DNA of 20,000 nt from the IMG/VR virus record IMGVR_UViG_3300005099_000288; one strand, written 5' to 3'. Within the stretch, counting starts at the first letter, position 1, and each line of letters begins with the position of its first letter. Shown piece by piece: positions 2,165 through 18,973 of the stretch. The notes beneath the pieces are model-generated. The model had not been told where the DNA came from. It saw only the letters and a list, made by a program, of their open reading frames with translations, and did not search any database. The DNA is from an uncultured virus (IMG/VR IMGVR_UViG_3300005099_000288) (Duplodnaviria; Heunggongvirae; Uroviricota; Caudoviricetes). A program made the position numbers and the translations under genes.

Positions 2165-2726
2165 AGTTGTTGATGGAATACCGGAAGTGGGATTCCCGAC
2201 AAAACAGAAGATTGAGTGGATTATTCGTAAATACTCTATCGCAGAAAAACTTTTACGGTGGTTTAAGAAAAAGGAAATTGTCGATATAGGGTGTGGGTAT
2301 GGTATAGGCACAAAATTTTTACATGATCAAGGATACAGTGTTGTCGGGGTCGATTACTGGAAACCTCTGGTAGAATACTGTCGTTCGAAGTATCCTAAGA
2401 TTCCTTTTATACATGCAAGAGCTGAAGAATTTGACATTTCTAAGTTTGACGGAATCGTTGCAATAGATGTTGTAGAACATTTCAAAGATCCTAAGGGCGT
2501 TTTAAAAAAATGGTATTCTGAAATGAAATCGGATTCTATATTAATTGTTAGGACACCACATCGTGAGATAAAAGAAGGTAGATCGAGGGATTATAACCCA
2601 CACCACCATTATGAATTAACTCCAGAAGAAGTGGTAGAATGTTTACCTGGAGTCGTTTTATATAAACCTGATGTCCCGCAGACTCCTCACGTTTTTTGGT
2701 TTTATCTATATAAAGGTCTTCGTTAG
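2139..2726 (+). CDS. Class I SAM-dependent methyltransferase
   Basis: Motif I VDIGCGYG, VVGVD, DVVEHF and LIVRTP...NPHHHYE, as in glycan-locus methyltransferases. Start uncertain (ORF is open from 2094). Confidence 0.88.
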   Translation: MKSSKELSKVVDGIPEVGFPTKQKIEWIIRKYSIAEKLLRWFKKKEIVDIGCGYGIGTKFLHDQGYSVVGVDYWKPLVEYCRSKYPKIPFIHARAEEFDISKFDGIVAIDVVEHFKDPKGVLKKWYSEMKSDSILIVRTPHREIKEGRSRDYNPHHHYELTPEEVVECLPGVVLYKPDVPQTPHVFWFYLYKGLR

Positions 2727-2769
2727 ATGGGGCAAAATTTAAATCCAACTATGCAAAGAAAGACTGAAG

Positions 2770-2934
2770 ATGACTGATACTAATCCAAGAGGCCTACCAC
2801 GTCCTCATGATGGTAGAGGCAGAGGAATCGGAATGCCAGGAGGTCGACGTGCTGGCAGAAATACAAGACCATGTCCTTCTGGAGGACCTGGTTACGGCAG
2901 AGGAGGAGGACGTGGTAGAGGTAGAAACAGGTAG
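2770..2934 (+). CDS. Arg/Gly-rich basic microprotein (54 aa)
   Basis: MTDTNPRGLPRPHDGRGRGIGMPGGRRAGRNTRPCPSGGPGYGRGGGRGRGRNR*. TATA tttaaat at ~2738 precedes a leaderless ATG, and the stop abuts the next gene. Not in the ORF track. Confidence 0.75.
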   Translation: MTDTNPRGLPRPHDGRGRGIGMPGGRRAGRNTRPCPSGGPGYGRGGGRGRGRNR

Positions 2935-3126
2935 GTGATAGCAGTGGATAATAAGGGGTTAGGGATTTTACTATTATTAGGAGTCGGAGCAGCAGTGATT
3001 TATTACATTTTGACCTCAGAAGAAAAACCTACTGTGAGATTTTTTGAAGGTCGTTTCCCACCACTAAGTGAACAACAGTTTCTCAGAAAACCCTTAAGAG
3101 GTTATGAGTATTTAGTAACTCCATGA
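2935..3126 (+). CDS. Small membrane-anchored protein
   Basis: N-terminal hydrophobic segment GLGILLLLGVGAAVIYYIL; tightly packed between neighbours. Confidence 0.7.
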   Translation: MIAVDNKGLGILLLLGVGAAVIYYILTSEEKPTVRFFEGRFPPLSEQQFLRKPLRGYEYLVTP

Positions 3127-3136
3127 GGTGACTATC

Positions 3137-4267
3137 ATGGCAGTTAGTGTTGGCCAGTTTGAAATGATACCTGGAGTAAAGTATCCAGTGACGATAGCTC
3201 AGATTAAAGAGATAATAAAAACACTGTACAGGAGTGGTCCCGAGAAAGCTCCAGCGATCTTTATATGGGGAAAAATGGGGGTCGGGAAGAGTAGTAGTGT
3301 TAGACAGTGTGCGCATGAACTAGGGATTGAATTCATAGATCTTCGTCTGTCTCAGTTAGATCCTACGGATTTAAGAGGCCTTCCTTCTATAGCAACAGGA
3401 GAAGTTAAGTGGGTCCCTCCTTCGTTTCTTCCTAGGTTCGGCAAGGGAATACTTTTCCTAGATGAATTAAATTTAGCTCCACCTGCAGTACAGGCAGCAG
3501 GATATGAATTACTTCTTGATAGAAGAGTAGGCGAATATGAACTTCCTGAGGGCTGGATGATTGTAGCAGCAGGGAACCAAGAAGAGCTCTCCCCGTATAT
3601 TTATGAAATGGCTCCACCACTAGCTAACAGAATGGTGCATTTAGTTGTAAAGTTAGATCTAGATATATGGAAAGAGTGGGCATATCGTGCTGGTATAGAC
3701 ACTAGCATTATTGCATTTTTGACAAAAAATCCACAATACTTATTTTACTATGATCCCACAAAACCTGTGAAGGCGTATCCAACACCAAGATCGTGGGAGT
3801 TCGTATCACGAATATTAGGATCTGGGTTAGTTGGAGCTGAACTTGAAGCAGCAGTTTTCGGAACAATTGGTCAAGCAGTAGGTATAGAGTTCTTGACTTT
3901 CAGGAGACTACAAGAAGAAATGCCAGATCCGTTAAAGGTAATAAGAGGAGAAGAAAAACCTATAATTACTGGAAAACCTGATGTGATGTATTTATTAATA
4001 ACTTCGTGCGTAGCATGGATACCCAGATTACCTCCTGAAATTTCGGTACAAAAAGCTGTCGATAATCTTATAGACTATGCAAACTATTTATATAAATATG
4101 GGAAAGAGCAAGGTAGAACAGAATTCGTTGCTACATCTGTAGTTCTAATTAGAGACATGGTAGATGCAGGATTTGATGACTATCTAATAAAATCAGAAAA
4201 GATGGAAGAATGCGTCGAGACGGGTCCTTGTTCAGAGACTTTGAAAACTTTCAAGAAAGTCGGTTAA
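3137..4267 (+). CDS. MoxR-family AAA+ ATPase
   Basis: Walker A GKMGVGKS, Walker B ILFLDELN, AAGN, LANR and TPRSWE. SD GAGGTGA before ATG 3137 (ORF track starts at 3128). Confidence 0.92.
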   Translation: MAVSVGQFEMIPGVKYPVTIAQIKEIIKTLYRSGPEKAPAIFIWGKMGVGKSSSVRQCAHELGIEFIDLRLSQLDPTDLRGLPSIATGEVKWVPPSFLPRFGKGILFLDELNLAPPAVQAAGYELLLDRRVGEYELPEGWMIVAAGNQEELSPYIYEMAPPLANRMVHLVVKLDLDIWKEWAYRAGIDTSIIAFLTKNPQYLFYYDPTKPVKAYPTPRSWEFVSRILGSGLVGAELEAAVFGTIGQAVGIEFLTFRRLQEEMPDPLKVIRGEEKPIITGKPDVMYLLITSCVAWIPRLPPEISVQKAVDNLIDYANYLYKYGKEQGRTEFVATSVVLIRDMVDAGFDDYLIKSEKMEECVETGPCSETLKTFKKVG

Positions 4268-4650
4268 AAATTTCTATTACAGAGGAAGAATGGAATAGAA
4301 TTACAGAAGAGTTTTACAAAAGATTAAAATTTCCTTTGAGAATAAAACTAGAATGTCAGCTGGAATTTGACCCAAAATACGTTGTATCCTTGGGATTTTC
4401 GCCAGAGCCCTATTTATACATAAACACAATTAGCAGAGTCTATGTAAATATAAACAAGGACGGATCTATTTATTTTTATAGAGAAACAGGAAAAAAGACA
4501 AGGCTTTTGGATCCACTAGAATTCTACTTTTTGCAAGGAATTTTAGAGGAGAAACTATATGAATTTCTAAAAGAATATATAGCAACATCCAGTAAATATC
4601 TCAAAAGAATATTAAAAGAATATTTTGTGAGGAGGCTAAAAAATGAGTGA
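4210..4650 (+). CDS. Hypothetical protein between the MoxR and VWA genes
   Basis: 146-aa ORF with native composition that overlaps the VWA gene start. True start uncertain. Confidence 0.65.
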   Translation: MRRDGSLFRDFENFQESRLKISITEEEWNRITEEFYKRLKFPLRIKLECQLEFDPKYVVSLGFSPEPYLYINTISRVYVNINKDGSIYFYRETGKKTRLLDPLEFYFLQGILEEKLYEFLKEYIATSSKYLKRILKEYFVRRLKNE

Positions 4651-5848
4651 AGACTACAAGGAAAAATTTATAACAGCATTGACACAACTTACATTTGCAC
4701 ACCCTTTTTTTGCAACAATCTCTATGTATTTGAATCCCATCTACAGTAAATTTGTCCCTACAGCAGGCGTAAACGTCGTAACTCTTGATTTATTGATAAA
4801 TCCGGAACTTATTAGGAAACATTCTTTGCAGGAATTACAGTTTATTTTAGCTCATGAAGTAATGCACGTTGTTTTGGCAGATGAACGCAGAAGACTCGGC
4901 AGAAATCCTGAATTGTGGAATGTTGCAATGGATTATGAAATTAATTGTATTCTCACCGAAGCAGGGATAGGCGAGAGACCGAACTGGGTCCTTTATGATA
5001 ATTCTTTCTGTGGAAAATCTGCAGAAGAAATTTATGAAATTCTAAAAAGGGAAACTCCCGTGATTAAAGTCATCCAACCTACAAAAATACCTCGTGCCCC
5101 GAAAGGAGGACTTCCAGGAGGGGCTGTTTATGAAACTCCAACAGGGATGACAGATGTACACGTAGACATAGAGGATCTCGAGAAAGAATATGGAAAAAGT
5201 AAGGTAGATGATGCAATAAGGCGAAATACGGGGATTACCGTTAGAGCCGAACAAATGGCAAGAGCTGCAGGTTTATTGCCACTAGGAATACAGAGGATCA
5301 TCGAATCTATGTTTGCTCCGAAAATTCCATGGCAAACTCTTTTGAAGAAATATGTTAAATCATTCGCAGGTCGAGGAGATTATAGGTGGGTACCTCCATC
5401 TAGAAGATATCCTTCAATTGGAATTTATTTACCCGGAACGAGATCAGAGTACATAGAACTTGCAGTGGCTATAGACTCTTCTGGATCTGTGTCAGATAAA
5501 GAGATGTCTGAATTTGTTGCAATAGTCGAAGATTTAATGAAAGAACTCAGAGATTTTACAATTCATTTAATTATCTGTGACGCTAAAGTACATTCGTATC
5601 AGAAACTTACAAGAGGTTCAAGTATTGACAAGTCAAAGATAAAAGGATACGGAGGAACTAATTTTATGCCAGCTTTTAATTTTGTTAAGGATCGTGGAAT
5701 AAGGCCAGATTTGTTTATTTATCTCACAGATGGATTTCCAAATAAATGGCCAGAAGAGCTTCCTTCATATCCTGTGATATGGGTAATTAATAATAATCGT
5801 GCTAAAGTTCCTTGGGGACATGTAATAAGGCTTACTGAATTTAGGTGA
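4643..5848 (+). CDS. DUF2201-type zincin-like metallopeptidase + VWA domain protein
   Basis: HExxH (AHEVMHVV), WNVAMDYEIN, WxxPSRR, MIDAS DSSGS, GYGGTNF, YLTDG and PVIW. Confidence 0.9.
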   Translation: MSEDYKEKFITALTQLTFAHPFFATISMYLNPIYSKFVPTAGVNVVTLDLLINPELIRKHSLQELQFILAHEVMHVVLADERRRLGRNPELWNVAMDYEINCILTEAGIGERPNWVLYDNSFCGKSAEEIYEILKRETPVIKVIQPTKIPRAPKGGLPGGAVYETPTGMTDVHVDIEDLEKEYGKSKVDDAIRRNTGITVRAEQMARAAGLLPLGIQRIIESMFAPKIPWQTLLKKYVKSFAGRGDYRWVPPSRRYPSIGIYLPGTRSEYIELAVAIDSSGSVSDKEMSEFVAIVEDLMKELRDFTIHLIICDAKVHSYQKLTRGSSIDKSKIKGYGGTNFMPAFNFVKDRGIRPDLFIYLTDGFPNKWPEELPSYPVIWVINNNRAKVPWGHVIRLTEFR

Positions 5849-5853
5849 AAAAA

Positions 5854-6462
5854 ATGAATGAACTCTACTGGGTTCTATTCAAAGGTCGCAGCATTTATTT
5901 TGTTGATACTAGAAATACTGTATACGGGTTAGCTGATGATATTGCGAATTTTTTGGTGAAATACGAACTTTACAAAGGAAGCGTATATGGATTTGCATTC
6001 AAAGAAAAAAGTACAATGAAAAAATTATGTTTCTTCATTTCGATGTGTAAGGATCCTGAGGGAGAATTTCACGCTCAATTTTTTAGTCTTACTGGAGAAG
6101 AATCTGTGTTTAGGAAATTCGGACCTGGTAGTGTTATCGAAAGGGTGTTTAGAGAAAATTTTGTTGTTAGATCCTCTTTTGATTTGGGCATTAGAAATGG
6201 AGGAAGTTATATGCTTGTGATGATAGATTTCAGGAACGATATTTTGTTGTCTTATAATTATTGTGGAGAGCAAAAACTTCCTTCAGATGCTACTCATATT
6301 GTTGGAGGAAAATGTAATAGTTTCATGGTTTATACACCTTCAGGAGCAGAGGTACCTGATTTTAGTTCTGAAAGTAATCCCGAAATAAGAGATTGGATAT
6401 ACTTAGGAATCGAAGAATTATACAAGAAATTGTCAGAAAAGTTAGGGATCCCAGAACGGTGA
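5854..6462 (+). CDS. Hypothetical protein, paralog family A (pair with 6467-7096)
   Basis: Shares W(V/I)LFKGR, DTR-x-TV-x-GLA, GFAFK, FGPGSV, YCG(E/D)QK and C-terminal LSE-x-(L/M)GIP with the next ORF. Confidence 0.8.
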   Translation: MNELYWVLFKGRSIYFVDTRNTVYGLADDIANFLVKYELYKGSVYGFAFKEKSTMKKLCFFISMCKDPEGEFHAQFFSLTGEESVFRKFGPGSVIERVFRENFVVRSSFDLGIRNGGSYMLVMIDFRNDILLSYNYCGEQKLPSDATHIVGGKCNSFMVYTPSGAEVPDFSSESNPEIRDWIYLGIEELYKKLSEKLGIPER

Positions 6463-6466
6463 GAAA

Positions 6467-7096
6467 ATGAGCAGATTACACTGGATTTTATTTAAGGGTA
6501 GGAATGTTTATTTTATTGATACTCGAGATACAGTATTTGGATTGGCCGAAGATGCTGCTAATTTCTTGACAAAGTATGAGATTTATAGAGGTCTTCGCGA
6601 AGAGGAAGAAGGCGTGACAGGATTTGCATTTAAAAAAGGAGATACTTTGAAAAAATTATATTTTGTTGTATCGATGTATAGAGATCCAGAATCAGAATTT
6701 TATATTCAATCCCATAAACTAACAGGGGAAGAACTCGCCCCTTCTAGATTTGGTCCTGGAAGTGTTGTAGAACAAATATTCAAAGAGGATTTTGTTTTAG
6801 ATTCTTTTTTCGTTCCAGGAATTACAGATAAGAAATTTCTCTTGATGACAACTATTACTTTTAGGAATCAAATCACAATGGTATATTATTATTGCGGAGA
6901 TCAAAAAATAGATCCAAGAGAAGTACAACATTTTACTGGGATAAGGTGCCATGAATTCTTGACCTATAGACCTACTGGTGAAAGGGAAAAAATGTTAAGC
7001 TCTACAAGTACTCCAGGTTTAAGAGAATGGATATATTCAAGTGTTCACGATTTATATAAAACTTTATCAGAACTTATGGGTATTCCAGTGGTTTGA
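6467..7096 (+). CDS. Hypothetical protein, paralog family A (pair with 5854-6462)
   Basis: End-to-end similarity to the preceding ORF; GGTGA SD overlaps the upstream stop. Confidence 0.8.
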   Translation: MSRLHWILFKGRNVYFIDTRDTVFGLAEDAANFLTKYEIYRGLREEEEGVTGFAFKKGDTLKKLYFVVSMYRDPESEFYIQSHKLTGEELAPSRFGPGSVVEQIFKEDFVLDSFFVPGITDKKFLLMTTITFRNQITMVYYYCGDQKIDPREVQHFTGIRCHEFLTYRPTGEREKMLSSTSTPGLREWIYSSVHDLYKTLSELMGIPVV

Positions 7097-7113
7097 AGAA
7101 AATATTTAAAATA
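7095..7113 (+). promoter_or_regulatory. Archaeal BRE-TATA promoter for the leaderless 7139 gene
   Basis: gaagaaaata-tttaaaata about 27 nt upstream of ATG 7139. Confidence 0.55.
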
Positions 7114-7138
7114 CAGGATCAAATTTTTAAATGATATC

Positions 7139-7645
7139 ATGGAGTATATTGTAATTTATTCAATTCCACAAATGCGTTTATTCGAAAAGCGAAAAATCTC
7201 AGGAGATTTTGTTTCATTACTCAAGTGGTTCTATCAGAGTTTTCCGAAATCGTATAATAGAGCTGCTTTGGTTTACGATGAGGAGGCGAAAACTTTATAC
7301 GAAAAGTACGTATTTTTAAAAATTTTAAGGGGCGATATTACTAACGTTCCAGGAGAGACATATCTCGAGATGATGTATTTTTCTGATACAACCCGTGCAC
7401 AAAAATTAGAAGGACCTATATGTCAGGGACTTTTATTTGTTTTTTACTACAGTGTTAGATATAAACCTACTGTTAGAATCAGATGTGTGATAGATCCCGA
7501 AAAGAGTATCATTCTTCTTTATAAACCTGCAAGGGGAGAGTATTTGACGTTGAGACATCGTCCTAAAATACGTTTAAGCTTCGAAGAATTGAGAGGATTA
7601 TCACGACCTGAAGAGATAGCAAGGTATTTAAATATGTTAGTTTAA
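7139..7645 (+). CDS. Hypothetical protein, distant member of paralog family B
   Basis: ISGDFVSLLKWF, YEKYVFLKILRGD and RGLSRPEEIARYL match VEGDLYDLFKYL, FEKFVFVKGLRTD and RGIYTPEELAKVL of 13374-13997. Confidence 0.75.
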   Translation: MEYIVIYSIPQMRLFEKRKISGDFVSLLKWFYQSFPKSYNRAALVYDEEAKTLYEKYVFLKILRGDITNVPGETYLEMMYFSDTTRAQKLEGPICQGLLFVFYYSVRYKPTVRIRCVIDPEKSIILLYKPARGEYLTLRHRPKIRLSFEELRGLSRPEEIARYLNMLV

Positions 7646-7654
7646 GTAATAAAT

Positions 7655-7768
7655 ATGCGAGTCCTGAGAACTTTAGCGTTATTCACTTTATTAGGAGGAC
7701 TTAGTTTCGTATCCTGGAATCTACTTTCAATGATACGAGAAGAACTCACGGCGTCTTTGGAGACTTAG
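7655..7768 (+). CDS. Small membrane peptide (37 aa)
   Basis: MRVLRTLALFTLLGGLSFVSWNLLSMIREELTASLET*; fills an intergenic gap. Confidence 0.5.
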   Translation: MRVLRTLALFTLLGGLSFVSWNLLSMIREELTASLET

Positions 7769-7808
7769 GGAGAAATTTTAATTTTTTATTCGGTCCTTAT
7801 TTTTTATA

Positions 7809-7979
7809 ATGGCAGATAATAGAATATATCGGGAATTTGCGGATTCGACAGCTTTTAAGAATTTTTACATAAATACGAGAATCTATGGAACGGGGACTCT
7901 GTCAATACAGCTGATTACACAAAGGCCCTTTAAGAAACAAATAGCAATTTTTAAAATTCCTTGTTGGGAGGTCTTGTGA
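7809..7979 (+). CDS. Hypothetical microprotein (56 aa)
   Basis: MADNRIYREFADSTAFKNFYINTRIYGTG...WEVL*. Upstream TATA-like tract; TGATG overlap with the next gene. Confidence 0.55.
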   Translation: MADNRIYREFADSTAFKNFYINTRIYGTGTLSIQLITQRPFKKQIAIFKIPCWEVL

Positions 7980-8560
7980 TGATTCTCAGAAGTGTAGACA
8001 AATTGTTGAATCTTTTGGGATATTATAAAATAAGGTGGGTACCATATTTGTCAGAGGAAATATTCCACCATTTTATTAGATGTAAGTATATGGGGTATTG
8101 GAAAGGAATATACAACAAAGACGGAAAATTAATAGACGAATCCTGCGGTTATGGATCTTTTTATCCTCGAGAATTGTGGGAATATTATATAGAGTGTAAT
8201 CCACTGCGTGCGAAAGAAGTTGACACCATACAAATAAAATATTTCATCCAGGCAATATGTGTTACCGATAAAGCTCTACACACCCTAATCTATGAGGCAA
8301 ACGTTACTGAGAAAAAGAAATGGTGGACATATGGCCAACCGATAGATTTTGATAGATTGGAGGATCCAAGATGGGCTGTGGTTGTTCCATTTAAGAAAAA
8401 AGACAGGATTATTCGATGGCTCGCTAGGGATAATGTATATCCAGGCTATAACATTCACTGTCACAACAGGAGATTTCCGATTTTCTCACCAGACATGAGC
8501 GGAACTCAATATTTCGTGAAGGAACATTCTTTTGAGGTTGTAAGAAGTGAGAGTCTGTGA
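7979..8560 (+). CDS. Hypothetical protein
   Basis: Long aromatic-rich ORF with SD GGAGG upstream; no recognisable motif. Confidence 0.7.
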   Translation: MILRSVDKLLNLLGYYKIRWVPYLSEEIFHHFIRCKYMGYWKGIYNKDGKLIDESCGYGSFYPRELWEYYIECNPLRAKEVDTIQIKYFIQAICVTDKALHTLIYEANVTEKKKWWTYGQPIDFDRLEDPRWAVVVPFKKKDRIIRWLARDNVYPGYNIHCHNRRFPIFSPDMSGTQYFVKEHSFEVVRSESL

Positions 8561-9636: not shown

Positions 9637-10011
9637 ATGAAACTGAAATACAAATCTTCTATAGAAAAGTGGGAGGATCTAACGAGAATTGCATTGTTTC
9701 AGCTTAACGATGAAAAACTTGCATGGCTCTGTCAAGATATCGCTGATTACATAAAATCAAAATGTGATACCAAACTTAAATTTACCATTGAACTAGATAT
9801 TGAGAATTTAGAGGATTTTGTAGATGCTATATATGATGATAGTGCCACTGATCGAAAACATCCATGTCCTCATTGCTATAAATATAGAGGTGATTGTCAT
9901 AAGTGCCCTTTGAGAGGAAAGAAAATAGGTTATTGTTGTGATGGATTATGGATTAAGGTTATGAAATATTTGAATATAAAGAGAGCACATGAATATTTAG
10001 ATACTGAGTGA
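9637..10011 (+). CDS. Cys-cluster protein, paralog of 10494-10865
   Basis: KYKSSIEKWEDLTRIALF...DEKLAWLCQ...HPCPHC-x6-CHKCPLRG-x5-CCDG-x-W. Confidence 0.8.
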   Translation: MKLKYKSSIEKWEDLTRIALFQLNDEKLAWLCQDIADYIKSKCDTKLKFTIELDIENLEDFVDAIYDDSATDRKHPCPHCYKYRGDCHKCPLRGKKIGYCCDGLWIKVMKYLNIKRAHEYLDTE

Positions 10012-10040
10012 ACACATTATAGAAGGAGGTGATTGAAACT

Positions 10041-10220
10041 ATGAAAGTAGGAAAACTCGAGATGGTAAAAGAACTCAAATGCGAATGTGGAAGTAAAGAT
10101 TTTTTAGTAGGTCCTAGAGGAGGACTAAGCGTAAATATTAAATGTGTGAAATGTGGAAGGATAATGAATGTAGTTTGTGGTCCTAACGGAAAATATTTAG
10201 TAGAAAGAATATACGAATAG
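10041..10220 (+). CDS. Zinc-ribbon microprotein
   Basis: CECGS...GPRGG...IKCVKCG; SD GGAGGTGA. Confidence 0.7.
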   Translation: MKVGKLEMVKELKCECGSKDFLVGPRGGLSVNIKCVKCGRIMNVVCGPNGKYLVERIYE

Positions 10221-10227
10221 AGTAAAA

Positions 10228-10497
10228 ATGGTGTTCGAACTGGTAGTTCCTAGAATTCAAAAGAATGTAATAAATATGTGCAAGAAATGTGTATACTTCA
10301 GGGGAATTAGAAATCATAGAAAAAATCCCAATTTGGTCGTTATACGTTGTGATGTTCCTAAAGAAATTTGGTACGGTGATATGAAATGTCTCAGGGAAAG
10401 AACATTGAGAGTTTATCAACCCTGTCGCAAGAAGACAAACGTTCTCAATCAGGAGGGGAGATTACAAGAGAAAAAATTGAGAGGAGGTGGAAAATGA
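10228..10497 (+). CDS. Cys-containing basic hypothetical protein
   Basis: CKKCVYF...RCD; ATGA overlap with the next gene. Confidence 0.6.
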   Translation: MVFELVVPRIQKNVINMCKKCVYFRGIRNHRKNPNLVVIRCDVPKEIWYGDMKCLRERTLRVYQPCRKKTNVLNQEGRLQEKKLRGGGK

Positions 10498-10865
10498 AAC
10501 TGGAATATAGATCTTCGGTTGAAAAGTGGGAGAGTCTAACCAAAATTGCTCTATTCGAGTTTGATGACGAAAAATTGGCATGGCTTTGTCAGGAAGTCGC
10601 AGATTATATAAAATCGAAGGGTGATGTCTCCTTACCGTATATTGTCGAATATAACATAGAGACTATAGAGCATTTCATTAGAGCGATATATACCTCCTAT
10701 AGACATCCGTGTCCTCACTGTGTTAGGTTTTGTAACAACTGCCGGATATGCCCTTTACGGGGGGATAGAGGATTATGCTGTGATGGTAAGTGGCGTGACG
10801 TCGTGGTGTACTTGAAGTCTATATTAGAAGATTGTAGAAGAGTACGCCGAGGCCGACTTGGATAG
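10494..10865 (+). CDS. Cys-cluster protein, paralog of 9637-10011
   Basis: ATG 10494 after GGAGGTGG matches the paralog N-terminus MKL(K/E)Y; HPCPHC-x6-CRICPLRG-x4-CCDG-x-W. Confidence 0.8.
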   Translation: MKLEYRSSVEKWESLTKIALFEFDDEKLAWLCQEVADYIKSKGDVSLPYIVEYNIETIEHFIRAIYTSYRHPCPHCVRFCNNCRICPLRGDRGLCCDGKWRDVVVYLKSILEDCRRVRRGRLG

Positions 10866-12477: not shown

Positions 12478-12496
12478 AAAGGAAATACTTAAAAAG
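12478..12496 (+). promoter_or_regulatory. Putative BRE-TATA for the Rit1-like gene
   Basis: aaaggaaata-cttaaaaag in the intergenic gap, followed by a GGTGA SD before GTG 12535. Confidence 0.45.
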
Positions 12497-12534
12497 TGTA
12501 AGTGGAAACCGTAGATATACAACAGGTGAACGCA

Positions 12535-13092
12535 GTGATATATCAGAGGAATAAAATTCTACGAGTAGCAAATGCTTCTAACGGGTTAGCATTTCCTCCA
12601 TACGATGAAATCTCAATGTTTTTGAGTCAGCACGGGCATCACATAAAGACTGGATATTTTAGAATAGATGCAATGCCACATACAGTAACTGCACATTTAT
12701 TACAGGGAGGGAAAATCGTTGTAGTTGATGCTACACGTAAAAGCCACGGATTGCCCGATGGTATAAAGAAAGGACTGACTACATGGTGTCTTGTATTTAA
12801 TAGAGCAATAGGTTATCGGAGAATAAGAGTCGCAGAATGGGAAACTCCTGAAATGCGAAGAGTCGCTTTTAGCAATACACACAAAAAGACAGTTCAAGCA
12901 ATAAGGAGATTAGCAAGGATTCTAGGGGATTGCGGTCCTGTATGGATAGGAAAAGATGCACCTGTAATGCTGGAAATCCATCATAATTTCAGGTTGGACG
13001 ACAAACCACACGAGATTTCTAAAGCCCTGGAGATATCTAGATTTTTCAAAGTAAAACACTATGACCCCATAAGGTTTTCAGGAAATTCTTAG
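12535..13092 (+). CDS. Rit1-like protein (tRNA A64-2'-O-ribosylphosphate transferase N-terminal domain homolog)
   Basis: Collinear motifs VANASNGLAF / MFLSQHGH / GGKIVVVDATRKSHGLPDGIKKGLTTWCLVFNRAI / GPVWI versus recalled Rit1 VAN(L/E)RCGLWY / YFKSTDGH / GGxIIVDSTR(K/R)GKRxPDxxSKTIPxWxxVLNR / RPLWV. ORF is open from 12502. Confidence 0.75.
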   Translation: MIYQRNKILRVANASNGLAFPPYDEISMFLSQHGHHIKTGYFRIDAMPHTVTAHLLQGGKIVVVDATRKSHGLPDGIKKGLTTWCLVFNRAIGYRRIRVAEWETPEMRRVAFSNTHKKTVQAIRRLARILGDCGPVWIGKDAPVMLEIHHNFRLDDKPHEISKALEISRFFKVKHYDPIRFSGNS

Positions 13093-13102
13093 AATAACAG
13101 TA

Positions 13103-13120
13103 ATTTACTTTTATTTTTTT
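13103..13120 (+). terminator. Oligo-T archaeal terminator after the Rit1-like gene
   Basis: atttacttttattttttt just after the stop codon. Confidence 0.5.
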
Positions 13121-13373
13121 GAATAGAGCTCAAACAGAGCTTAACTGAAATAAGATTAGAACGAGCTTATTTTCCCGAAAAAAGCGTAGAATCCTCGTAT
13201 TTTATGATCCGTGTAAAGAAAAACCTCACTCGAAGCAGTTTTTTCTAAGTAAGATATAGATCTACGGAGGAAAATTTATCATCGAAAAGGGGGCTTGATA
13301 TTTTCAAGTTAAAAAGTGTCATCATTAATCGGGAGAGAACATTTTTTTATAAAAGAACTACCAGTTATATTTG

Positions 13374-13997
13374 ATGAAATATTATGGTCTGAAGATATCC
13401 AAAATTACAGCACCTGAAGTATATCTTCCTCCAGAAGTCGAAAAATTCTCAGTGGAAGGAGATTTGTATGATTTATTCAAATATTTAGCACGTGGGTTGG
13501 AATATCCTGCACAATTTTATTTCATGGCAGGATTTTCTAAAGAACCTATTGTAAAATTCGAGAAATTCGTGTTTGTAAAAGGTTTAAGGACTGATGTTAA
13601 AGAAACAATGTTCAAATATTTAGACAAGGCTTACTTTTATCTCGATTCTCTTTTAGTAGAAGAACCGCTAGAGGAAGACATAAAATATTATGAGAAGTTT
13701 TATCCGTGTTTATTGGAAATAAGAAATTATCTTGCAGAAATTGAATTTTTTGGAAGTTCTTCCTATGGTCGTCACAGGAAATTTATTTCTTTATATGGTA
13801 TCAGAAACGGTAAAATCCTAGTAAAGTGTACAGTAAGTGGACTGTTGAGAGGAGAGTTTGACGAATTCAAGATAGGTATCAAAGGACATAAGAAGATGTT
13901 CCCTATTAAAATCATACGAGGAATTTACACTCCTGAAGAACTGGCAAAGGTTTTAATTCTCCGTACTATATATAAACGCACGAGGAAAGAAAGATGA
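13374..13997 (+). CDS. Hypothetical protein, paralog family B (1 of tandem triplet)
   Basis: GDLYDLxxYLxRGL, EPIVKxxKxVFVKGL, PxLLxIxNY, CTV and GIYTxEEL are shared with the next two ORFs. TATA ttttataaaa upstream. Confidence 0.82.
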   Translation: MKYYGLKISKITAPEVYLPPEVEKFSVEGDLYDLFKYLARGLEYPAQFYFMAGFSKEPIVKFEKFVFVKGLRTDVKETMFKYLDKAYFYLDSLLVEEPLEEDIKYYEKFYPCLLEIRNYLAEIEFFGSSSYGRHRKFISLYGIRNGKILVKCTVSGLLRGEFDEFKIGIKGHKKMFPIKIIRGIYTPEELAKVLILRTIYKRTRKER

Positions 13998-14620
13998 AAT
14001 ACCACATACTAAAAGTCTGTAGGATCCTATCATGGAAAGAATTTCCCAAATCAGAAATCGAAGAATCTTCCATCGACGGGGATTTGTATGATTTGATAGA
14101 GTATTTAACTCGTGGTCTGAGGAGATCTAAAAAGATCTACTTTGTCGTGAGTCTTTCAGAGGAACCCATAGTAAAATTTAAAAAACTCGTGTTTGTAAAA
14201 GGATTGAGTGAGGGTATTGAAAAAACAATGTATTATTATCTGTCGGGAATTACTACTCATCTTGAGATCCTCTTAGCGAGAGAAATTTCAGAAGATTACA
14301 AAAATTATTTTGATGAACATTACCCAGGTTTGCTGAAAATAAAAAATTACATTGCCATGGCAGAATTTGCAGGTTATTCTTCTGGAAGTGGTTCTGAAAA
14401 CTGGATATCCTTGTTTTGTATTAAAAATGGCAGAGTGCTGGGAATTTGTACAGTAAAAGCTCCAAGAGGTAGAATGAAGGCTCCTAGAGAAGTTGAGTTT
14501 CGCCATTTCGAGATAAATTTAAAGTATTCGAGAAAAAAATTTCCTGTTGAATATATGAGAGGAATTTACACTTCTGAAGAATTGATAAAATTCCTACGTT
14601 TACTTCTTGAGACGGGGTGA
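13994..14620 (+). CDS. Hypothetical protein, paralog family B (2 of triplet)
   Basis: Same motifs; ATGA overlap with the upstream gene. Confidence 0.82.
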   Translation: MKYHILKVCRILSWKEFPKSEIEESSIDGDLYDLIEYLTRGLRRSKKIYFVVSLSEEPIVKFKKLVFVKGLSEGIEKTMYYYLSGITTHLEILLAREISEDYKNYFDEHYPGLLKIKNYIAMAEFAGYSSGSGSENWISLFCIKNGRVLGICTVKAPRGRMKAPREVEFRHFEINLKYSRKKFPVEYMRGIYTSEELIKFLRLLLETG

Positions 14621-14625
14621 GAAAA

Positions 14626-15213
14626 ATGAAATATTACGGATTAAAAGGAAGGGTTGTATCTTCGAGAATATCTTCAGATTCAGAGAGAGTCGAAGAATTT
14701 TCAATAGATGGAGATCTGTATGATCTGGCAGAATATCTGACACGAGGTTTGGAAGAATCTAAAAAAATCTACTTTATTGCAAGTTCTTTCAGAGAACCGC
14801 TGATAGAATTAAAAAAACTCGCATTTGTGAAAGGATTAGGTTCGAAGATTGAAAGTACAATGTTTAACTATTTATACGGAACTGTTGTTTATTTCGATGA
14901 TTTCTTAGCGAAGAAGATCCCGTCCTATCGGAGAAATTGTATTGATGAGCACTGTCCAGGATTGTTAAAAATAAAGGATTACATTTCTATGGTAGAGTTT
15001 TTAGGTTATTCATCTGCAGATAGTTATAGCGTGTGGATCATTCTATACTGTGTTAAGAATTGCAGATTATTGGGGACTTGCACAATAAAAGTTCCGAAAG
15101 GGGAGTATAAACTCAGAATAAATATCAGGTATGCAAGGAAAGGAATTCCTATAGAGGAAATTAAAGGCCTTTATACGGCTGAAGAATTAATAAATATCCT
15201 ACGTTCCTTATAG
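14626..15213 (+). CDS. Hypothetical protein, paralog family B (3 of triplet)
   Basis: Same motifs; MKYYGLK start identical to 13374. Confidence 0.82.
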   Translation: MKYYGLKGRVVSSRISSDSERVEEFSIDGDLYDLAEYLTRGLEESKKIYFIASSFREPLIELKKLAFVKGLGSKIESTMFNYLYGTVVYFDDFLAKKIPSYRRNCIDEHCPGLLKIKDYISMVEFLGYSSADSYSVWIILYCVKNCRLLGTCTIKVPKGEYKLRINIRYARKGIPIEEIKGLYTAEELINILRSL

Positions 15214-15222
15214 TGAGGAAAA

Positions 15223-15750
15223 ATGAAAAAAATGAAATATTACATTTTCTACCAAAGAGGGAATTTTTACGAAATCGAAGAAAAAGAATTTTTAGACTTA
15301 GAAGAACTTTTCCGACATTGTTATTATATGGGTGAAGATGTACTTGTTGTTGACAGATCGGGAGAAGAAAAAAGTGTACTGAAAAAATTGAAGAAATACC
15401 TTTTCCTTTGTTCAATTCATGGAAAAAAAGACGTGATATCAAGAATTGTCGAATGTGTTGCACATAATCTTGGACTCGAACGAGATCTCCGAAAAACAGT
15501 GCAGGGAATTTTTGCGTCAGTTTCGAGAATGGGTGGGAGAGCAGTTAAAATTTTCGTTATTTACATTCCTCCAGAAGAAAGATACTATAGTGTGTGGAGA
15601 TACAAATATTCTCTGAAAACGAGACAACTGACTGTGTATAGAACTGGTTATCCCATTCTTTTTTATTCAGTTCATTTGCAATTTCTTGTGACATTAACTA
15701 AATATCCCAAGGCGGGGATAAAATTCGTAATTAGAAAAAGAAGGAAATGA
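15223..15750 (+). CDS. Hypothetical protein, possible distant family B member
   Basis: MKYYIF start; DLEELF and LKKYLFLCSI resemble DLYDLF and FEKFVFVKGL. Confidence 0.7.
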   Translation: MKKMKYYIFYQRGNFYEIEEKEFLDLEELFRHCYYMGEDVLVVDRSGEEKSVLKKLKKYLFLCSIHGKKDVISRIVECVAHNLGLERDLRKTVQGIFASVSRMGGRAVKIFVIYIPPEERYYSVWRYKYSLKTRQLTVYRTGYPILFYSVHLQFLVTLTKYPKAGIKFVIRKRRK

Positions 15751-15759
15751 TTCTAGAGG

Positions 15760-16227
15760 TCATTTTTCTAGAGTTTTTTTGCTATATTCACCGCCGAGTA
15801 TTCGTATGACTCGTAAAAGTTCTTCACCGTTGTATATATCACGCAGACGTGTTGAATAGAATCCTCTACCACGAGATAGTACTTCGTAGCGAGGTTTTAG
15901 GTATATCTTCATTTCACCACGTCCGAGCTGAAACCTATATTCTGCTAAATTCTTGGGGTCGAAGACTGACAAAATATCTTCCCAGTGATGTTCCCATATA
16001 CATGCAACTGCTCCGGATACATATTTAGGGGGATGGAAGTCCTTTTTTACATAGAAGACAAAAGCGGGTCTTTTATCATCGAAAATGTATGAACTTTTAT
16101 AGAACCCTATTGGTGTTTTAAGAGCAAAGAGAAGATGGTGGAAGTCACATTCATATTTAACAAATTTATATAACGGAGTTAGGGGAGGTTTCGTTCTGTA
16201 TTCACGAACTATGAGATACCACGACAT
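15760..16227 (-). CDS. Hypothetical protein, probable distant family B member
   Basis: YECDFHHLL and C-terminal RDIYNGEELLRVI resemble GDLYDL and RGIYTPEELAKVL. BRE-TATA cgaaaaac-tttttaata precedes a leaderless ATG on the minus strand. Confidence 0.75.
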   Translation of the reverse strand: MSWYLIVREYRTKPPLTPLYKFVKYECDFHHLLFALKTPIGFYKSSYIFDDKRPAFVFYVKKDFHPPKYVSGAVACIWEHHWEDILSVFDPKNLAEYRFQLGRGEMKIYLKPRYEVLSRGRGFYSTRLRDIYNGEELLRVIRILGGEYSKKTLEK

Positions 16228-16312
16228 ATTTTTAAAATTTCCCTTTTTTATATTAAAAAGTTTTTCGGAATTCGAAGAAAAATAGAAGGTCTAGAAATTC
16301 TACTGAGTGAAA

Positions 16313-16403
16313 ATGACTTGGTTTGTGGTTTGTGAGGAATATACAAAAGAACGATTTTTAATTTCATTCAACAGACACGATTGTGATTTTTACAATTTGC
16401 TCA
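16313..16403 (+). pseudogene. Truncated paralog of 15760-16227, ending at the IS right end
   Basis: MTWFVVCEEY...FNRHDCDFYNLL aligns with MSWYLIVREY...FVKYECDFHHLL; beyond 16403 the frame runs into antisense tnpB sequence. Confidence 0.65.
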
Positions 16404-16560
16404 GTGACCTACCCGCCCTAAAGGGCGGAGCTTCAAGAGGAATTTGGCCATTCCTTAACGGAACGACCCTTATCCTCCTTGGCGGGGTCACACCGCCACT
16501 ACCCCTTATCCTTACGGATTCGGGGGCTACTTTCTTTAAGATATTCAAAGCACCGTTAAC
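16384..16560 (-). ncRNA. TnpB omega-RNA (reRNA) scaffold plus flanking guide; 5' boundary approximate
   Basis: Hairpins at 16480-16498 (loop GUGACC complementary to terminal GGUCAC, pseudoknot), 16446-16468 and 16413-16428. Predicted guide UGAGCAAAUUGUAAAAAUCA. Confidence 0.6.
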
Positions 16561-16863
16561 GTCGGCATTCACAACGAAACCACACTTCCTGCAAACGAAC
16601 AGTCCTCTATGTTTTCTGTTGTTTTTATTTACGTCTCCACAGATTGAGCAAGTCTGAGACGTGTAAGCTTCATCAACTTCGATGTAATTAATCCCGTAGT
16701 ATTCGCACTTCGATTTGAGTTTTTGTTTGAACAAACCGTAAGGAATGTCTCTGTTTTTTGGATAAATTTCAAAATCTACCTCTATGTCTACATTTATCTC
16801 TACCTCGGTCCCACACTTGGGACATGTTACCTTTAATTTTTCTACCTTTAGTCCTTCTTTCAT
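16390..16863 (-). CDS. tnpB: Chimeric ORF: host CPxCG microprotein (34 aa) fused in frame to the TnpB C-terminal fragment
   Basis: IPYGLFKQKLKSKCEYYGI, YTSQTCSICG...FVCRKCG (zinc finger) and NADVNGALNIL (RuvC-III). RuvC-I/II and the REC/WED regions are absent. Confidence 0.8.
   Translation of the reverse strand: MKEGLKVEKLKVTCPKCGTEVEINVDIEVDFEIYPKNRDIPYGLFKQKLKSKCEYYGINYIEVDEAYTSQTCSICGDVNKNNRKHRGLFVCRKCGFVVNADVNGALNILKKVAPESVRIRGSGGVTPPRRIRVVPLRNGQIPLEAPPFRAGRSLSKL
16404..16761 (-). mobile_element. Internally deleted, non-autonomous IS200/IS605 (tnpB) element
   Basis: Locally higher GC. Right end GAAG-CT-CCGCCCT-TT-AGGGCGG-GTAGG-TCAC; encodes the TnpB C-terminus; preceded on the minus strand by TTTAT (TAM-like); no target duplication. 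Confidence 0.8.
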
Positions 16864-16866
16864 GTT

Positions 16867-17127
16867 CTACCTCCTATTTCTCAATTCAGCGTAGCAATTT
16901 TTACAAATTTGATGTGCATCTTCTATTTGTATTCCTAGGAATCGTGAAAGTTTTTCTTCTAATCCTAGGATGTGATAAATTGCACTGCATATTTTTCGAA
17001 AATTCTCCATTTTTTTGGCTGCTGTTTCTTCATCACAGAGTGTCAATAATTGATTCCATACCTCTATGTCGAGGGATATGAACAAGTTGAAGAGTTCGGA
17101 TTTCTCCTCTTCTGTCAGATTTCCCAT
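16867..17127 (-). CDS. Helical hypothetical protein, paralog of 17990-18277
   Basis: EKSELFNLFISLD, DEETAAK, HILGLE and ICKNCYAEL versus EKKELAQIFVDLD, DDETAGK, HKIGIE and TCEKFYKKL. SD GGAGGT. Confidence 0.72.
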   Translation of the reverse strand: MGNLTEEEKSELFNLFISLDIEVWNQLLTLCDEETAAKKMENFRKICSAIYHILGLEEKLSRFLGIQIEDAHQICKNCYAELRNRR

Positions 17128-17139
17128 ATTTCTACCTCC

Positions 17140-17375
17140 ATTTTTTATTTTTAAATACAATTTAAATCTAAATCCTAAAAATAAAAATATTCCTCCCTTT
17201 TTTTATTTTTTTTATTTTTTAAAAAAATTTTTTTTAAATTTTGATAATTTATTATTATCATAATTATTTAACACTAAAAAAGAAATTTTTTAAAATTTTT
17301 TATTTTTTTTAAAATTTTTTTAAATTGTTAAAATTCTCTCATAAAAATGCTCAAATTGAAAAAATTAAAAAATTT
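17140..17375. promoter_or_regulatory. Extremely AT-rich divergent intergenic region (candidate origin / divergent promoters)
   Basis: Almost only A/T tracts, two imperfect direct repeats (~17208-17240, ~17296-17326) and the inverted repeat TGATAAT-n5-ATTATCA (17242-17260). Confidence 0.5.
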
Positions 17376-17387
17376 GGAGGTGAAGAA

Positions 17388-17645
17388 ATGGGAGAAAATA
17401 CCCTTAAGGAGGTTTTGAAAAAACTAGATAAGGGGAATAATCCCCCCAAGAAGGGACCTTCGACAAAAAAGAGGATAACATTCGATCTCCAATCCAAGAA
17501 CGACCTCGAGAGATGGACAAAGGTGTGCAAACTTTTCGGAATTGATTCGAAAGCAAGAGATGCACCATCTCAAATCAAAAATAAACTAGTGAGACTCGCA
17601 GAATTAGAACAAGAAGGAGTAATTAAATGGGAAATTAAGAAATAA
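17388..17645 (+). CDS. Small basic protein, possibly ribbon-helix-helix DNA-binding
   Basis: SD GGAGGTGA; KRITFDL beta-strand pattern followed by helices. Confidence 0.55.
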   Translation: MGENTLKEVLKKLDKGNNPPKKGPSTKKRITFDLQSKNDLERWTKVCKLFGIDSKARDAPSQIKNKLVRLAELEQEGVIKWEIKK

Positions 17646-17678
17646 ACTCCATTTCTCTTCTTTTTTTTGGTGGTGAAA

Positions 17679-17891
17679 ATGGAGAAGAAAAAGGAGAATT
17701 TGTGGTCTTCTCGAGTTGAGGAGTTGATTAATGAAGGATACGACTTACTACACAAGAAGATATTTCCCAGAAAAATACCTGATGAATTGTGGAAAGAACT
17801 ATTCCACGCAATTAAGGAAGAAGGATATAGGAAAACAGTTCTTGTTCCTAGAGGGAAAGATGGAAGTTTCGTTCTATTAGCGAAAAAATAG
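17679..17891 (+). CDS. Hypothetical protein
   Basis: GGTGGTGA SD; flanked by T-rich tracts. Confidence 0.65.
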   Translation: MEKKKENLWSSRVEELINEGYDLLHKKIFPRKIPDELWKELFHAIKEEGYRKTVLVPRGKDGSFVLLAKK

Positions 17892-17989
17892 ATCCTTTAT
17901 CTTCTCTCTTATTTTTAGGGGAAAAATAATTTTAATTTAAAAAAATTAGATTATATTGTGAATATTTAAAAAATTTTCAGGTGGTGAAA

Positions 17990-18277
17990 ATGGAAAAGAA
18001 AGAATTAGCACAAATATTTGTTGATTTAGATGAAACTATTTTCAAGGAGGTTTTTCGAATTGTAAAAGAAATATTAGTAGATGATGACGAAACAGCAGGG
18101 AAAATCGCAAGTTCAGCGATTTCCGAGAAGATAAGACCTATTTGGGCAGCTGCAATTCACAAAATCGGGATTGAATCCGAGATCGCAGAAATCCTTGAAA
18201 TCCCTGAGAAAAATATTGCGGAGACTTGTGAGAAATTCTATAAAAAATTATATGGAAAAATAGAAGTGAGCTGCTAA
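17990..18277 (+). CDS. Helical hypothetical protein, paralog of 16867-17127
   Basis: Shared motifs as listed for 16867-17127; GGTGGTGA SD. Confidence 0.72.
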   Translation: MEKKELAQIFVDLDETIFKEVFRIVKEILVDDDETAGKIASSAISEKIRPIWAAAIHKIGIESEIAEILEIPEKNIAETCEKFYKKLYGKIEVSC

Positions 18278-18469
18278 TATGGGACATCGAGAGCGTACGG
18301 TTTTATGGAACCTATGAATTGCAACCATTCTCAATAGTGTCCATTTTTAAATTTTTTCTTCTCCAAATAAATTTTTTGTTCTTTTTTCGAAGAGATTACA
18401 GGAGAATTTTTAAAAATATTTTAATCGAATTTTATTTAACAACAATTCAGTTTAAAGGAGGCGAGAATT

Positions 18470-18973
18470 ATGAAAATGTGGGTAAACGAAGAGGAAATTC
18501 CTGCATGCTATTGTAAAAAATGCGATCTTGTTTTTCCTACCCACGAAGAAACTATTAGGTTCGGTGACAGAGTTGTTAAGTTTTCGCGTTGTCCAAAATG
18601 TGGAGAAGGAATCGTAACAAGTGGAGTTTTACCTGTATCTCCCACAAAAATCAAAGTTCGAACAAAAAAGGAAAAGAAAAAACTCACAGATAAACAAAAA
18701 GAATTTATGGTTCAGGAATTCTTTGCTAGACATCCTAAAATTGAAGCAAGAAGTGAACGTTTTATTTTGCAGAGGATTTTTGGGAGTGACAGTACTCACA
18801 TGTATGAGACTCTCAGAAGGTATGAAGGAAAATTTTACACAAAAGAAGAAGTAGGGAATACGTTCGGAAAGGGGAAATTGTATAATTGGAAGAGCCTAGT
18901 AGCTGAAGTACCAAATAAACAAAAAAATGGGGCCAAAGAATTCCGCAAATATTGGAAAGATCTAATAGATTAG
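18470..18973 (+). CDS. Zinc-ribbon-containing basic protein
   Basis: CYCKKC...RCPKCG followed by a Lys-rich linker and a helical domain; AGGAGG SD. Confidence 0.72.
   Translation: MKMWVNEEEIPACYCKKCDLVFPTHEETIRFGDRVVKFSRCPKCGEGIVTSGVLPVSPTKIKVRTKKEKKKLTDKQKEFMVQEFFARHPKIEARSERFILQRIFGSDSTHMYETLRRYEGKFYTKEEVGNTFGKGKLYNWKSLVAEVPNKQKNGAKEFRKYWKDLID

Follow-up and report, generated by a model that had tools for sequence, protein, structure and literature searches.

We analysed a 20,000-nucleotide stretch of DNA from an uncultured virus (IMG/VR record IMGVR_UViG_3300005099_000288), referred to below as the window, and in it a stand-alone gene on the + strand at 12535-13092 whose product resembles the core of the enzyme Rit1. 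To our knowledge no enzyme other than Rit1 makes 2'-O-ribosyl-phosphate in RNA, and Rit1 has been treated as a eukaryotic speciality. From a GTG start at 12535 the coding sequence encodes 185 amino acids (aa), corresponding to a protein of ~21 kDa with an isoelectric point (pI) of ~10, and ends at a TAG stop codon at 13090-13092. An alternative in-frame GTG lies upstream at 12502, and the + strand open reading frame (ORF) that begins there (12502-13092) would yield 196 aa; residue numbers in this text refer to that longer form. Homologues mostly start at about residue 19-20; at this place none of the codons ATG, GTG and TTG is present in the window. The ORF is a real gene, far beyond chance: its product has matches to 44 other proteins, with E values from 1e-30 to 1e-53.

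A preliminary description of this DNA had credited the gene with its own TATA box, Shine-Dalgarno sequence and oligo-T terminator, and had called it monocistronic. Motifs of all three kinds are present, in more modest form. A Shine-Dalgarno-like AGGTGA lies at 12524-12529 (+), 5 nt ahead of the GTG at 12535, and many + strand genes of the window are likewise preceded by GGAGG or GGTGA motifs. The TATA-like or promoter-like 11-mer TTAAAAAGTGT at 12489-12499 (+) is repeated exactly at 13309-13319 and, with one mismatch, at 16253-16263 (+), each copy lying 46-62 nt upstream of a + strand gene (three genes). It may be a promoter element of the virus-like element, but its copy number is not significant by itself, since 43 of 200 shuffles gave at least three matches. 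Were the copy at 12489 a TATA box, transcription would be expected to begin near 12520, and the GTG at 12535 would then be the more likely start codon. A T-run, TTTTATTTTTTT, lies 17 nt past the stop at 13109-13120 (+); it has no hairpin and may serve as an oligo-T terminator. Neither a hairpin terminator nor a sigma-70-type promoter is conspicuous at the gene, and across the window such sites were about as frequent as in shuffled sequence (65 promoter-like sites versus 67.7 expected, 8 hairpin-terminator-like sites versus 10.4 expected). Intergenic gaps of 84 and 278 nt separate the gene from its upstream and downstream neighbours, respectively, so that a transcription unit of its own is plausible.

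Relationship of the small protein to Rit1

On profile comparison, the small protein is solidly identified as a homologue of the Rit1 N-terminal domain, as the preliminary description had proposed. The Pfam model of this domain, PF17184, matched the window protein with E 7e-9 and 35.9 bits against a cut-off of 27. When the family profile was aligned with a profile of 30 canonical Rit1 sequences using hhalign, the two matched with a probability of 99.2% and E 1.6e-19 over 89 columns (window residues 19-108). In the reciprocal direction, the profile of the small family retrieved canonical Rit1 proteins of 400-600 aa. Eighteen longer matches outside the small core family (279-1514 aa) were scanned, and all 18 had strong PF17184 matches of 200-290 bits, eight of them together with the DUSP-like domain PF04179 at E<=1e-3. 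At the same threshold PF17184 was found in 13 of the 22 small-family representatives scanned. In the ESM Atlas the nearest neighbours were Rit1 N-domain clusters (0.95), and a DSPn cluster was also listed at 0.81.

The absence of the DUSP-like domain, another claim of the preliminary description, also held. PF04179 was absent from the window protein, from the 36 other ORFs of the window and from the scanned neighbours in related loci, and a word-based search, which is weak evidence on this point, returned no longer fused forms of the small family. The N-domain of ~270 positions is itself not full-length here, the whole protein being 185-196 aa. Compared with Rit1 as known from yeast RIT1 (PF17184 plus PF04179), the small proteins are homologous over the first ~90 core residues, share its motifs and probably its paired aspartates, and likely have the same alpha/beta core. 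They differ in size (~160-185 aa against 400-600 aa), in having no DUSP-like domain, and in their carriers: Rit1 is eukaryotic, whereas genes of the small family occur in phages, a virus-like element and bacteria.

The family to which the window protein belongs is rare and uncharacterised; it consists of basic, stand-alone proteins of ~160 aa and comprises ~45 sequence clusters. A search of 5.8 billion clustered proteins gave 93 candidates, 45 of which were matches of 132-200 aa; all 45 came from metagenomes or metagenome-assembled genomes (MAGs), and 35 of them already carried a precomputed PF17184 label. The entry for the window protein itself lies on a 78,604-bp contig. An exhaustive search of 1.84 billion representatives with the family profile returned 289 proteins at E<=1e-3, 44 at E<=1e-10 and 25 at E<=1e-30, and we regard the small family as rare because so few representatives matched. 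No tblastn match to the family was found in 50,697 records of deposited phage genomes or in 72,556 plasmids, and neither NCBIfam nor PHROGs assigned a family to the window protein. The members with known context are hosted by tailed-phage contigs and a few bacterial MAGs, all uncultivated. An alignment of 36 members has 19 invariant columns and a consensus of ~160 aa, and its members are 43-58% identical to the window protein. The pI exceeds 8 in 35 of the 36 members (median 9.45), a basic charge that fits nucleic-acid binding. In some members (P0049, P0050) the C terminus is extended by 50-110 residues that contain paired Cys motifs resembling zinc ribbons; P0050 has a weak PF08274 match, and the extensions may be an added nucleic-acid-binding part.

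We compared residues by aligning the 36 small-family members with 61 canonical Rit1 N-domain pieces using MAFFT. The residues A23, N24, G28, F40, S42, H46, F53, D76, T78, K82, D86, W95, V98 and N100 dominate in both groups, and R101 is common to 66% of the canonical pieces. All the ordered motifs that had been claimed for the gene are found in the translation of 12502-13092, and all core motif residues of Rit1 are present in the window protein except K82. The first motif, V22-A-N24-x3-G28-L (12565-12588, +), falls at the end of strand 1 of the predicted structure; its N and G do not vary within the small family, and they are found in 97% and 100% of the 61 canonical pieces, respectively. The second, F40-x-S42-x-x-G-H46 (12619-12639, +), has its F, S and H also in the canonical Rit1 sequence F-K-S-T-D-G-H. 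The third, G69-G-x-I-x-x-V-D76-A-T-R-K-x4-P-D86, contains the loop D76-A-T-R-K-S-H-G-L-P-D86 (12727-12759, +), which lies between the strand 71-77 and the helix 86-102 and is the counterpart of Rit1 D-x-T-R-x-G-K-x-x-P-D. After eight intervening residues, D86 is followed by W95-C-L-V98-F-N100-R-A-I (12784-12810, +), shared with Rit1 W-C-x-V-x-N-R, and further on the protein has the motif L137-A-R-I-L-x4-P146-V-W-I. Finally, D166-D167 (12997-13002, +) follows the strand 155-160 and is aligned by MAFFT to Rit1 G-A-x-D-D, a position outside the local hhalign alignment.

The distribution of conservation within Rit1 bears on which part of the enzyme is retained. Among 43 full-length Rit1 sequences, every column conserved at 85% or more falls in the N-domain. 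In the DUSP-like domain of the same 43 proteins, the full C-x-x-G-x-x-R loop is present in only four and C-x-x-G in 19. Since these conserved columns of Rit1 all lie in the N-domain, the small proteins keep the constrained part, and this pattern suggests that the N-domain holds the catalytic site of Rit1.

The AlphaFold2 model, calculated from a 36-row alignment, is confident, with a predicted local distance difference test (pLDDT) score of 90.6 and a predicted template modelling (pTM) score of 0.85, and has an alpha/beta fold with strands at 19-24, 36-38, 71-77 and 155-160. In the model N24, D76 and T78 lie at or just past strand ends, S42 and H46 in the segment after strand 2, and D166 and D167 in the segment after strand 4, positions where the active site would be expected in folds of this kind. 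On this model, N24, S42, H46, D76-D86 and D166/D167 are predicted to line a single pocket. Foldseek returned nothing at E<=1e-3 in PDB or BFVD. A comparison with 48,161 chains by VIA-align placed Siw14, which has the protein tyrosine phosphatase (PTP) fold, at the top with Z 5.0 and a root-mean-square deviation of 3.4 over 107 residues. Further PTP-fold rows were DUSP15 and PtpB (both Z 4.0) and CDC14 (Z 3.9), and several HGPRT and UPRT chains, which are type I phosphoribosyltransferases, followed at Z 3.0-3.8. Z values of 5 or below are in the range of chance resemblance for this tool. Because the Foldseek search was empty and the best VIA-align Z was only 5.0, we claim no fold assignment. 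No Pfam phosphoribosyltransferase family matched the window protein, and the phosphatase signature C-x5-R is absent from its sequence. Designed TIM barrels that appeared in a PDB sequence search were rejected as spurious, the string GG-x-I-x-IVDAT being all that they have in common with the window protein.

Gene neighbourhoods of the relatives and of the window

We next consider where relatives of the gene are found. Related loci are given L-numbers below and one genome is called G002; near-identical loci were grouped manually, leaving ~14 lineages with readable flanks, and a narrower family alignment added one new viral locus. In four loci (L012, L013, L017 and L033) a gene for the RNA ligase RtcB (E 1e-109) lies directly downstream of the Rit1-like gene, with stop and start codons within a few bases of each other. 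These four are one phage seen four times, L017 and L033 being 99.6% identical. In L002, L026 and G002 the Rit1-like gene overlaps the start of a gene for an ATP-dependent RNA ligase of family PF09414. The latter three represent a complete, terminally repeated, podovirus-like phage of 46.8 kb, in which this PF09414 ligase is the sole one in the genome. The Rit1-like gene is thus operonic with an RNA ligase in two unrelated phage lineages.

Other relatives occupy a variety of phage settings. In a jumbo-phage-like group (L001/L004/L011, L005, L032, L014 and the RtcB phage) a protein with sigma-70 region 2 is encoded downstream of the gene. HK97-type capsid genes adjoin it in L003, and T7-type structural genes are among the contexts of other relatives. 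tRNA genes occur within 8 kb in four of the 13 loci scanned, a proportion given without a background rate: 11 in L001 and one each in L002, L005 and L034. L001 is a fragment of a jumbo phage (CheckV completeness 19%) that also has a NADAR gene (E 2e-31) and a radical-SAM gene a few kb away (features at 5731-8123 and 14800-18802), and one of its 11 tRNA genes received a 4-base anticodon call.

Locus L005 is a 179-kb contig that was binned in a Borrarchaeum MAG. It looks like phage and not like an archaeal chromosome, because it carries the sigma-70-like factor, a tRNA-Lys gene and RtcB, the last ~10.7 kb from the Rit1-like gene. At 2165-3244 of this contig a reading frame with NUMOD3 and HNH homing-endonuclease domains is continuous with the Rit1-like gene, no stop codon separating the two, and together they form an ORF of 359 aa. 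A separate Met is present in the Rit1-like part at about the place where its relatives begin, and the arrangement is either a fusion or an in-frame insertion of the endonuclease.

The window itself shares no synteny with these loci: no window ORF except the Rit1-like gene has a relative in any of them. It encodes two GT4 glycosyltransferases, one of which has no close relative that we could find, two S-adenosylmethionine (SAM) methyltransferases and many small orphan ORFs, and Rfam gave no match in it. The stretch 3128-5848 (+) encodes a MoxR-like AAA ATPase, which matches phrog_1297 at E 3e-84, and a DUF2201 metallopeptidase/VWA protein, which matches phrog_1314 at E 6e-89, with a 146-aa ORF between them. 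The relatives of the ATPase and of the DUF2201 protein all lie in bacteriophages, and the pair recurs in hundreds of bacteriophage genomes, at only 31-42% identity. Directly 3' of the Rit1-like gene, at 13371-15213 (+), lie three tandem paralogous ORFs of 198-208 aa with 38-52% mutual identity, for which Pfam, PHROG, PADLOC, phage-genome and Atlas searches gave no lead. Two tandem pairs of paralogues at 5845-7093 (+) and 9637-10862 (+), 50% and 57% identical, are likewise without a family match. On the opposite strand, at 16393-16863 (-), a 157-aa ORF overlaps the + strand ORF 16307-16657. Its matches (Pfam E 1e-25, together with Cas12 models of PADLOC) are limited to the C-terminal TNB/zinc-ribbon part of TnpB/Cas12f, and the ORF has the appearance of a TnpB gene fragment.

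The preliminary description had labelled the element archaeal. An archaeal host would be loosely compatible with the TATA-like motif, the oligo-T run and the absence of bacterial signals in the window. Every relative with an interpretable context lies in a bacteriophage-type or bacterial locus, that is, in a tailed phage or on the chromosome of a bacterial MAG. These observations neither establish the archaeal label nor exclude it.

Proposed function and alternatives

We tentatively favour the reading, which may well prove wrong, that the protein is a putative RNA 2'-O-phosphoribosyltransferase dependent on phosphoribosyl pyrophosphate (PRPP), with tRNA as its likeliest target, and that it would make tRNA cleavage-resistant or mark a repaired junction. 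Rit1 uses PRPP to form Ar(p)/Gr(p) at position 64 of initiator tRNA, a mark that keeps this tRNA from eEF1A (PMC7694415). By analogy, the small enzyme would take 5-phosphoribose from PRPP and attach it to the 2'-OH of a ribose in RNA, with tRNA as the most probable acceptor. The discrimination of initiator tRNA against eEF1A through A64 is a eukaryotic matter. Anticodon nucleases and other ribotoxins cut RNA via its 2'-OH, so that a bulky group on the 2'-oxygen would deprive them of their nucleophile and prevent a first or a repeated cut. In a virus the likeliest role would be to render viral or host tRNA resistant to cleavage, or to mark the junction once it has been repaired. PRPP as donor, RNA as acceptor and protection as the role are all inferred, and RNA phosphoribosylation appears the most economical explanation because the acidic and phosphate-binding residues of the presumed site are kept, the proteins are basic and the gene is translationally coupled, in two lineages, to two unrelated RNA ligases. 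A mobile-element-encoded enzyme for RNA (or DNA) phosphoribosylation had been suggested earlier on the basis of the window; the ligase operons give a possible RNA-directed role of this kind a context.

Two known systems help to place this proposal. In the bacterial Pnkp/Hen1 system, Hen1 2'-O-methylates the broken end before ligation, and the repaired RNA resists recleavage. Together with an adjacent ligase, the Rit1-like protein would follow this 'repair and immunise' logic. The likeness lies in the proposed logic only, a modifier of the ribose 2'-OH in an operon with an RNA ligase. Hen1 has an unrelated fold and uses SAM as donor in place of the presumed PRPP, no kinase or phosphatase partner is seen in G002, and the window itself has no ligase. 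Tpt1/KptA, an NAD (nicotinamide adenine dinucleotide)-dependent RNA 2'-phosphotransferase, acts on the 2' position at the ligation junction, and its homologues occur in organisms that do not have the known substrate. It resembles the proposed enzyme in being an RNA 2'-position enzyme functionally linked to RNA ligation, but no relation in sequence or fold was found, Tpt1 being absent from the results of the structure and Pfam searches.

Several observations weigh against RNA phosphoribosylation. The PF17184 match spans residues 5-115 of the window protein and only profile positions 18-130 of 271, and the protein is without the DUSP-like domain and ~100 residues of the N-domain. At the position of K82, which is K in 94% of the family, the window protein has H, with a K at 80. 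Ten columns that are invariant in Rit1 (R71, W75, K89, D92, R104, N106, T138, P140, E283 and W285 in the numbering of P0099) hold other residues or gaps in the 36-member small family, and three of the lost residues are basic. We found no experiment that identifies the catalytic domain of Rit1, and a PDB sequence search returned neither a relative nor a solved Rit1 structure. An adjacent RNA ligase is seen in only 2 of the ~14 lineages with readable flanks, a count without a background rate. Pfam recognised no kinase, phosphatase or Tpt1 in the complete phage G002. In the 20-kb window there is no RNA ligase domain among the 36 other ORFs and no tRNA gene. The gene also stands within DNA-replication modules in three loci, as described below, and in two Bipolaricaulota MAGs, L006 (8835-11886) and L007 (8669-12292), it lies between a divergent class-V aminotransferase gene (cysteine-desulfurase-like) and a rhodanese-metallo-beta-lactamase (rhodanese-MBL) gene. 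In L007 a sulfur-transporter ORF follows the rhodanese-MBL gene, and a third Bipolaricaulota MAG, L008, has homologous flanking ORFs. This setting looks chromosomal. A sulfur-handling cellular neighbourhood of this kind fits none of the readings offered here.

If the Rit1-like fold acted on something other than RNA, then DNA, ribonucleotides or primers within DNA, free nucleotides, or metabolites derived from NAD, ADP-ribose or PRPP would be candidate substrates, and the enzyme might, for example, modify DNA or destroy or rebuild a nucleotide signal. We consider this rather unlikely. The replication modules are the main evidence for it: the order of genes is UDG, Rit1-like gene, PolA and primase in L034; Rit1-like gene, UDG/exonuclease and PolA in L031; and DUF2800, SSB, Rit1-like gene, HNH, PolA and SNF2 in L025. 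The NADAR and radical-SAM genes a few kb away in L001 point in the same direction, as does the loss of the ten Rit1-invariant residues, since the three basic ones may have been used in tRNA binding. However, early and replication regions of phages are mosaic, so that co-location is weak evidence, the sole translationally coupled partners seen are RNA ligases, and the only characterised homologue acts on RNA.

The same chemistry could also serve the opposite aim. In that case the virus would phosphoribosylate host tRNA (for example the initiator or one isoacceptor) or rRNA as a takeover or toxin-like measure, so as to stop host translation or reprogramme it, and would supply its own tRNAs. This would have a precedent in Rit1, which naturally excludes a tRNA from one translation step (PMC7694415), and several relatives lie near phage tRNA genes or clusters, of which L001 has 11, and in early regions beside a sigma-70-like factor. 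A takeover function would not account for the close operonic coupling to RNA ligases, whose business is repair. If the protein were a toxin, then stable chromosomal copies without a visible antidote gene would not be expected in three Bipolaricaulota MAGs, and none of the PADLOC defence or toxin models matched the window protein or its homologues in L017 and L002. We judge host takeover to be unlikely.

Adjacency to RNA ligases in two lineages would also be expected of an end-healing enzyme or ligase accessory, such as a 2'- or 3'-phosphatase or a phosphate-binding helper, derived from a degenerate PTP/DUSP-like fold with D76 at the place of the Cys loop. The PTP/DUSP phosphatases and the non-catalytic DSPn domain of Cdc14 do share a weak fold resemblance with the model (Z 3.9-5.0, and 0.81 in the Atlas) and provide its best structural rows, and the strand-loop-helix unit D-x-T-R-x-x-K-x-x-x-D would have the topology of a P-loop and lie at the P-loop position. 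These scores are nonetheless within the range of chance, phosphoribosyltransferases score nearly as high (Z 3.8), and Foldseek was empty at its threshold. The window protein differs from the phosphatases in having no Cys-x5-Arg and no detected sequence relation to them, its conserved residues are shared with Rit1, a transferase, and RtcB needs no end-healing partner. An end-healing role is very unlikely in our estimate. Least likely of all is a non-catalytic RNA- or protein-binding module, for instance a decoy or regulator, that keeps only the Rit1 fold: the protein is small, basic and without a second domain, and the window copy has lost K82, but the 19 invariant columns of the family are mainly polar or acidic (N, S, H, D, D, N, R, R, D) and mostly invariant in Rit1 too, a pattern typical of an active site.

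Origin of the family and significance

The preliminary description had also suggested that the gene could bear on the origin of the Rit1 family. In a quick unrooted IQ-TREE analysis of 35 small and 31 canonical sequences (the thorough search was unfinished), a single branch with SH-aLRT support of 100 and a length of ~2.8 divided the small family from canonical Rit1. The single long branch argues against a recent capture from a eukaryote, but an unrooted tree gives no direction. A broader proposal would hold that in prokaryotic viruses the Rit1 catalytic core armours tRNA against anticodon nucleases, that it works in a two-gene module with RtcB or an ATP-dependent ligase, and that it represents an ancestral relative from which eukaryotic Rit1 arose by adding the DUSP-like domain. 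As a whole we regard this proposal as doubtful.

The gene encodes a minimal variant of the known Rit1 family that Pfam has already labelled automatically and that is uncharacterised. In the open literature (subscription journals lay outside its scope) we found no paper joining Rit1 with phages or RNA repair, and no characterised prokaryotic or viral homologue, in agreement with what had been stated before. The link of the small family with RNA ligases was likewise not found in print.

If the protein were inactive or acted elsewhere, the finding would be a modest extension of a Pfam family into viruses. Otherwise, a compact version of 160-185 aa from phages and bacteria would offer a small, tractable protein for studying the fold and mechanism of ribosyl-phosphate chemistry, and it would show that the function resides in the conserved N-domain and not in the DUSP-like domain. 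Provided that the link with RNA ligases is true, the family would bring a new type of RNA modification into the conflict between phages and tRNA-cleaving defences. Should the module of armour and ligase prove true, it would be a second, chemically different counterpart of Pnkp/Hen1.

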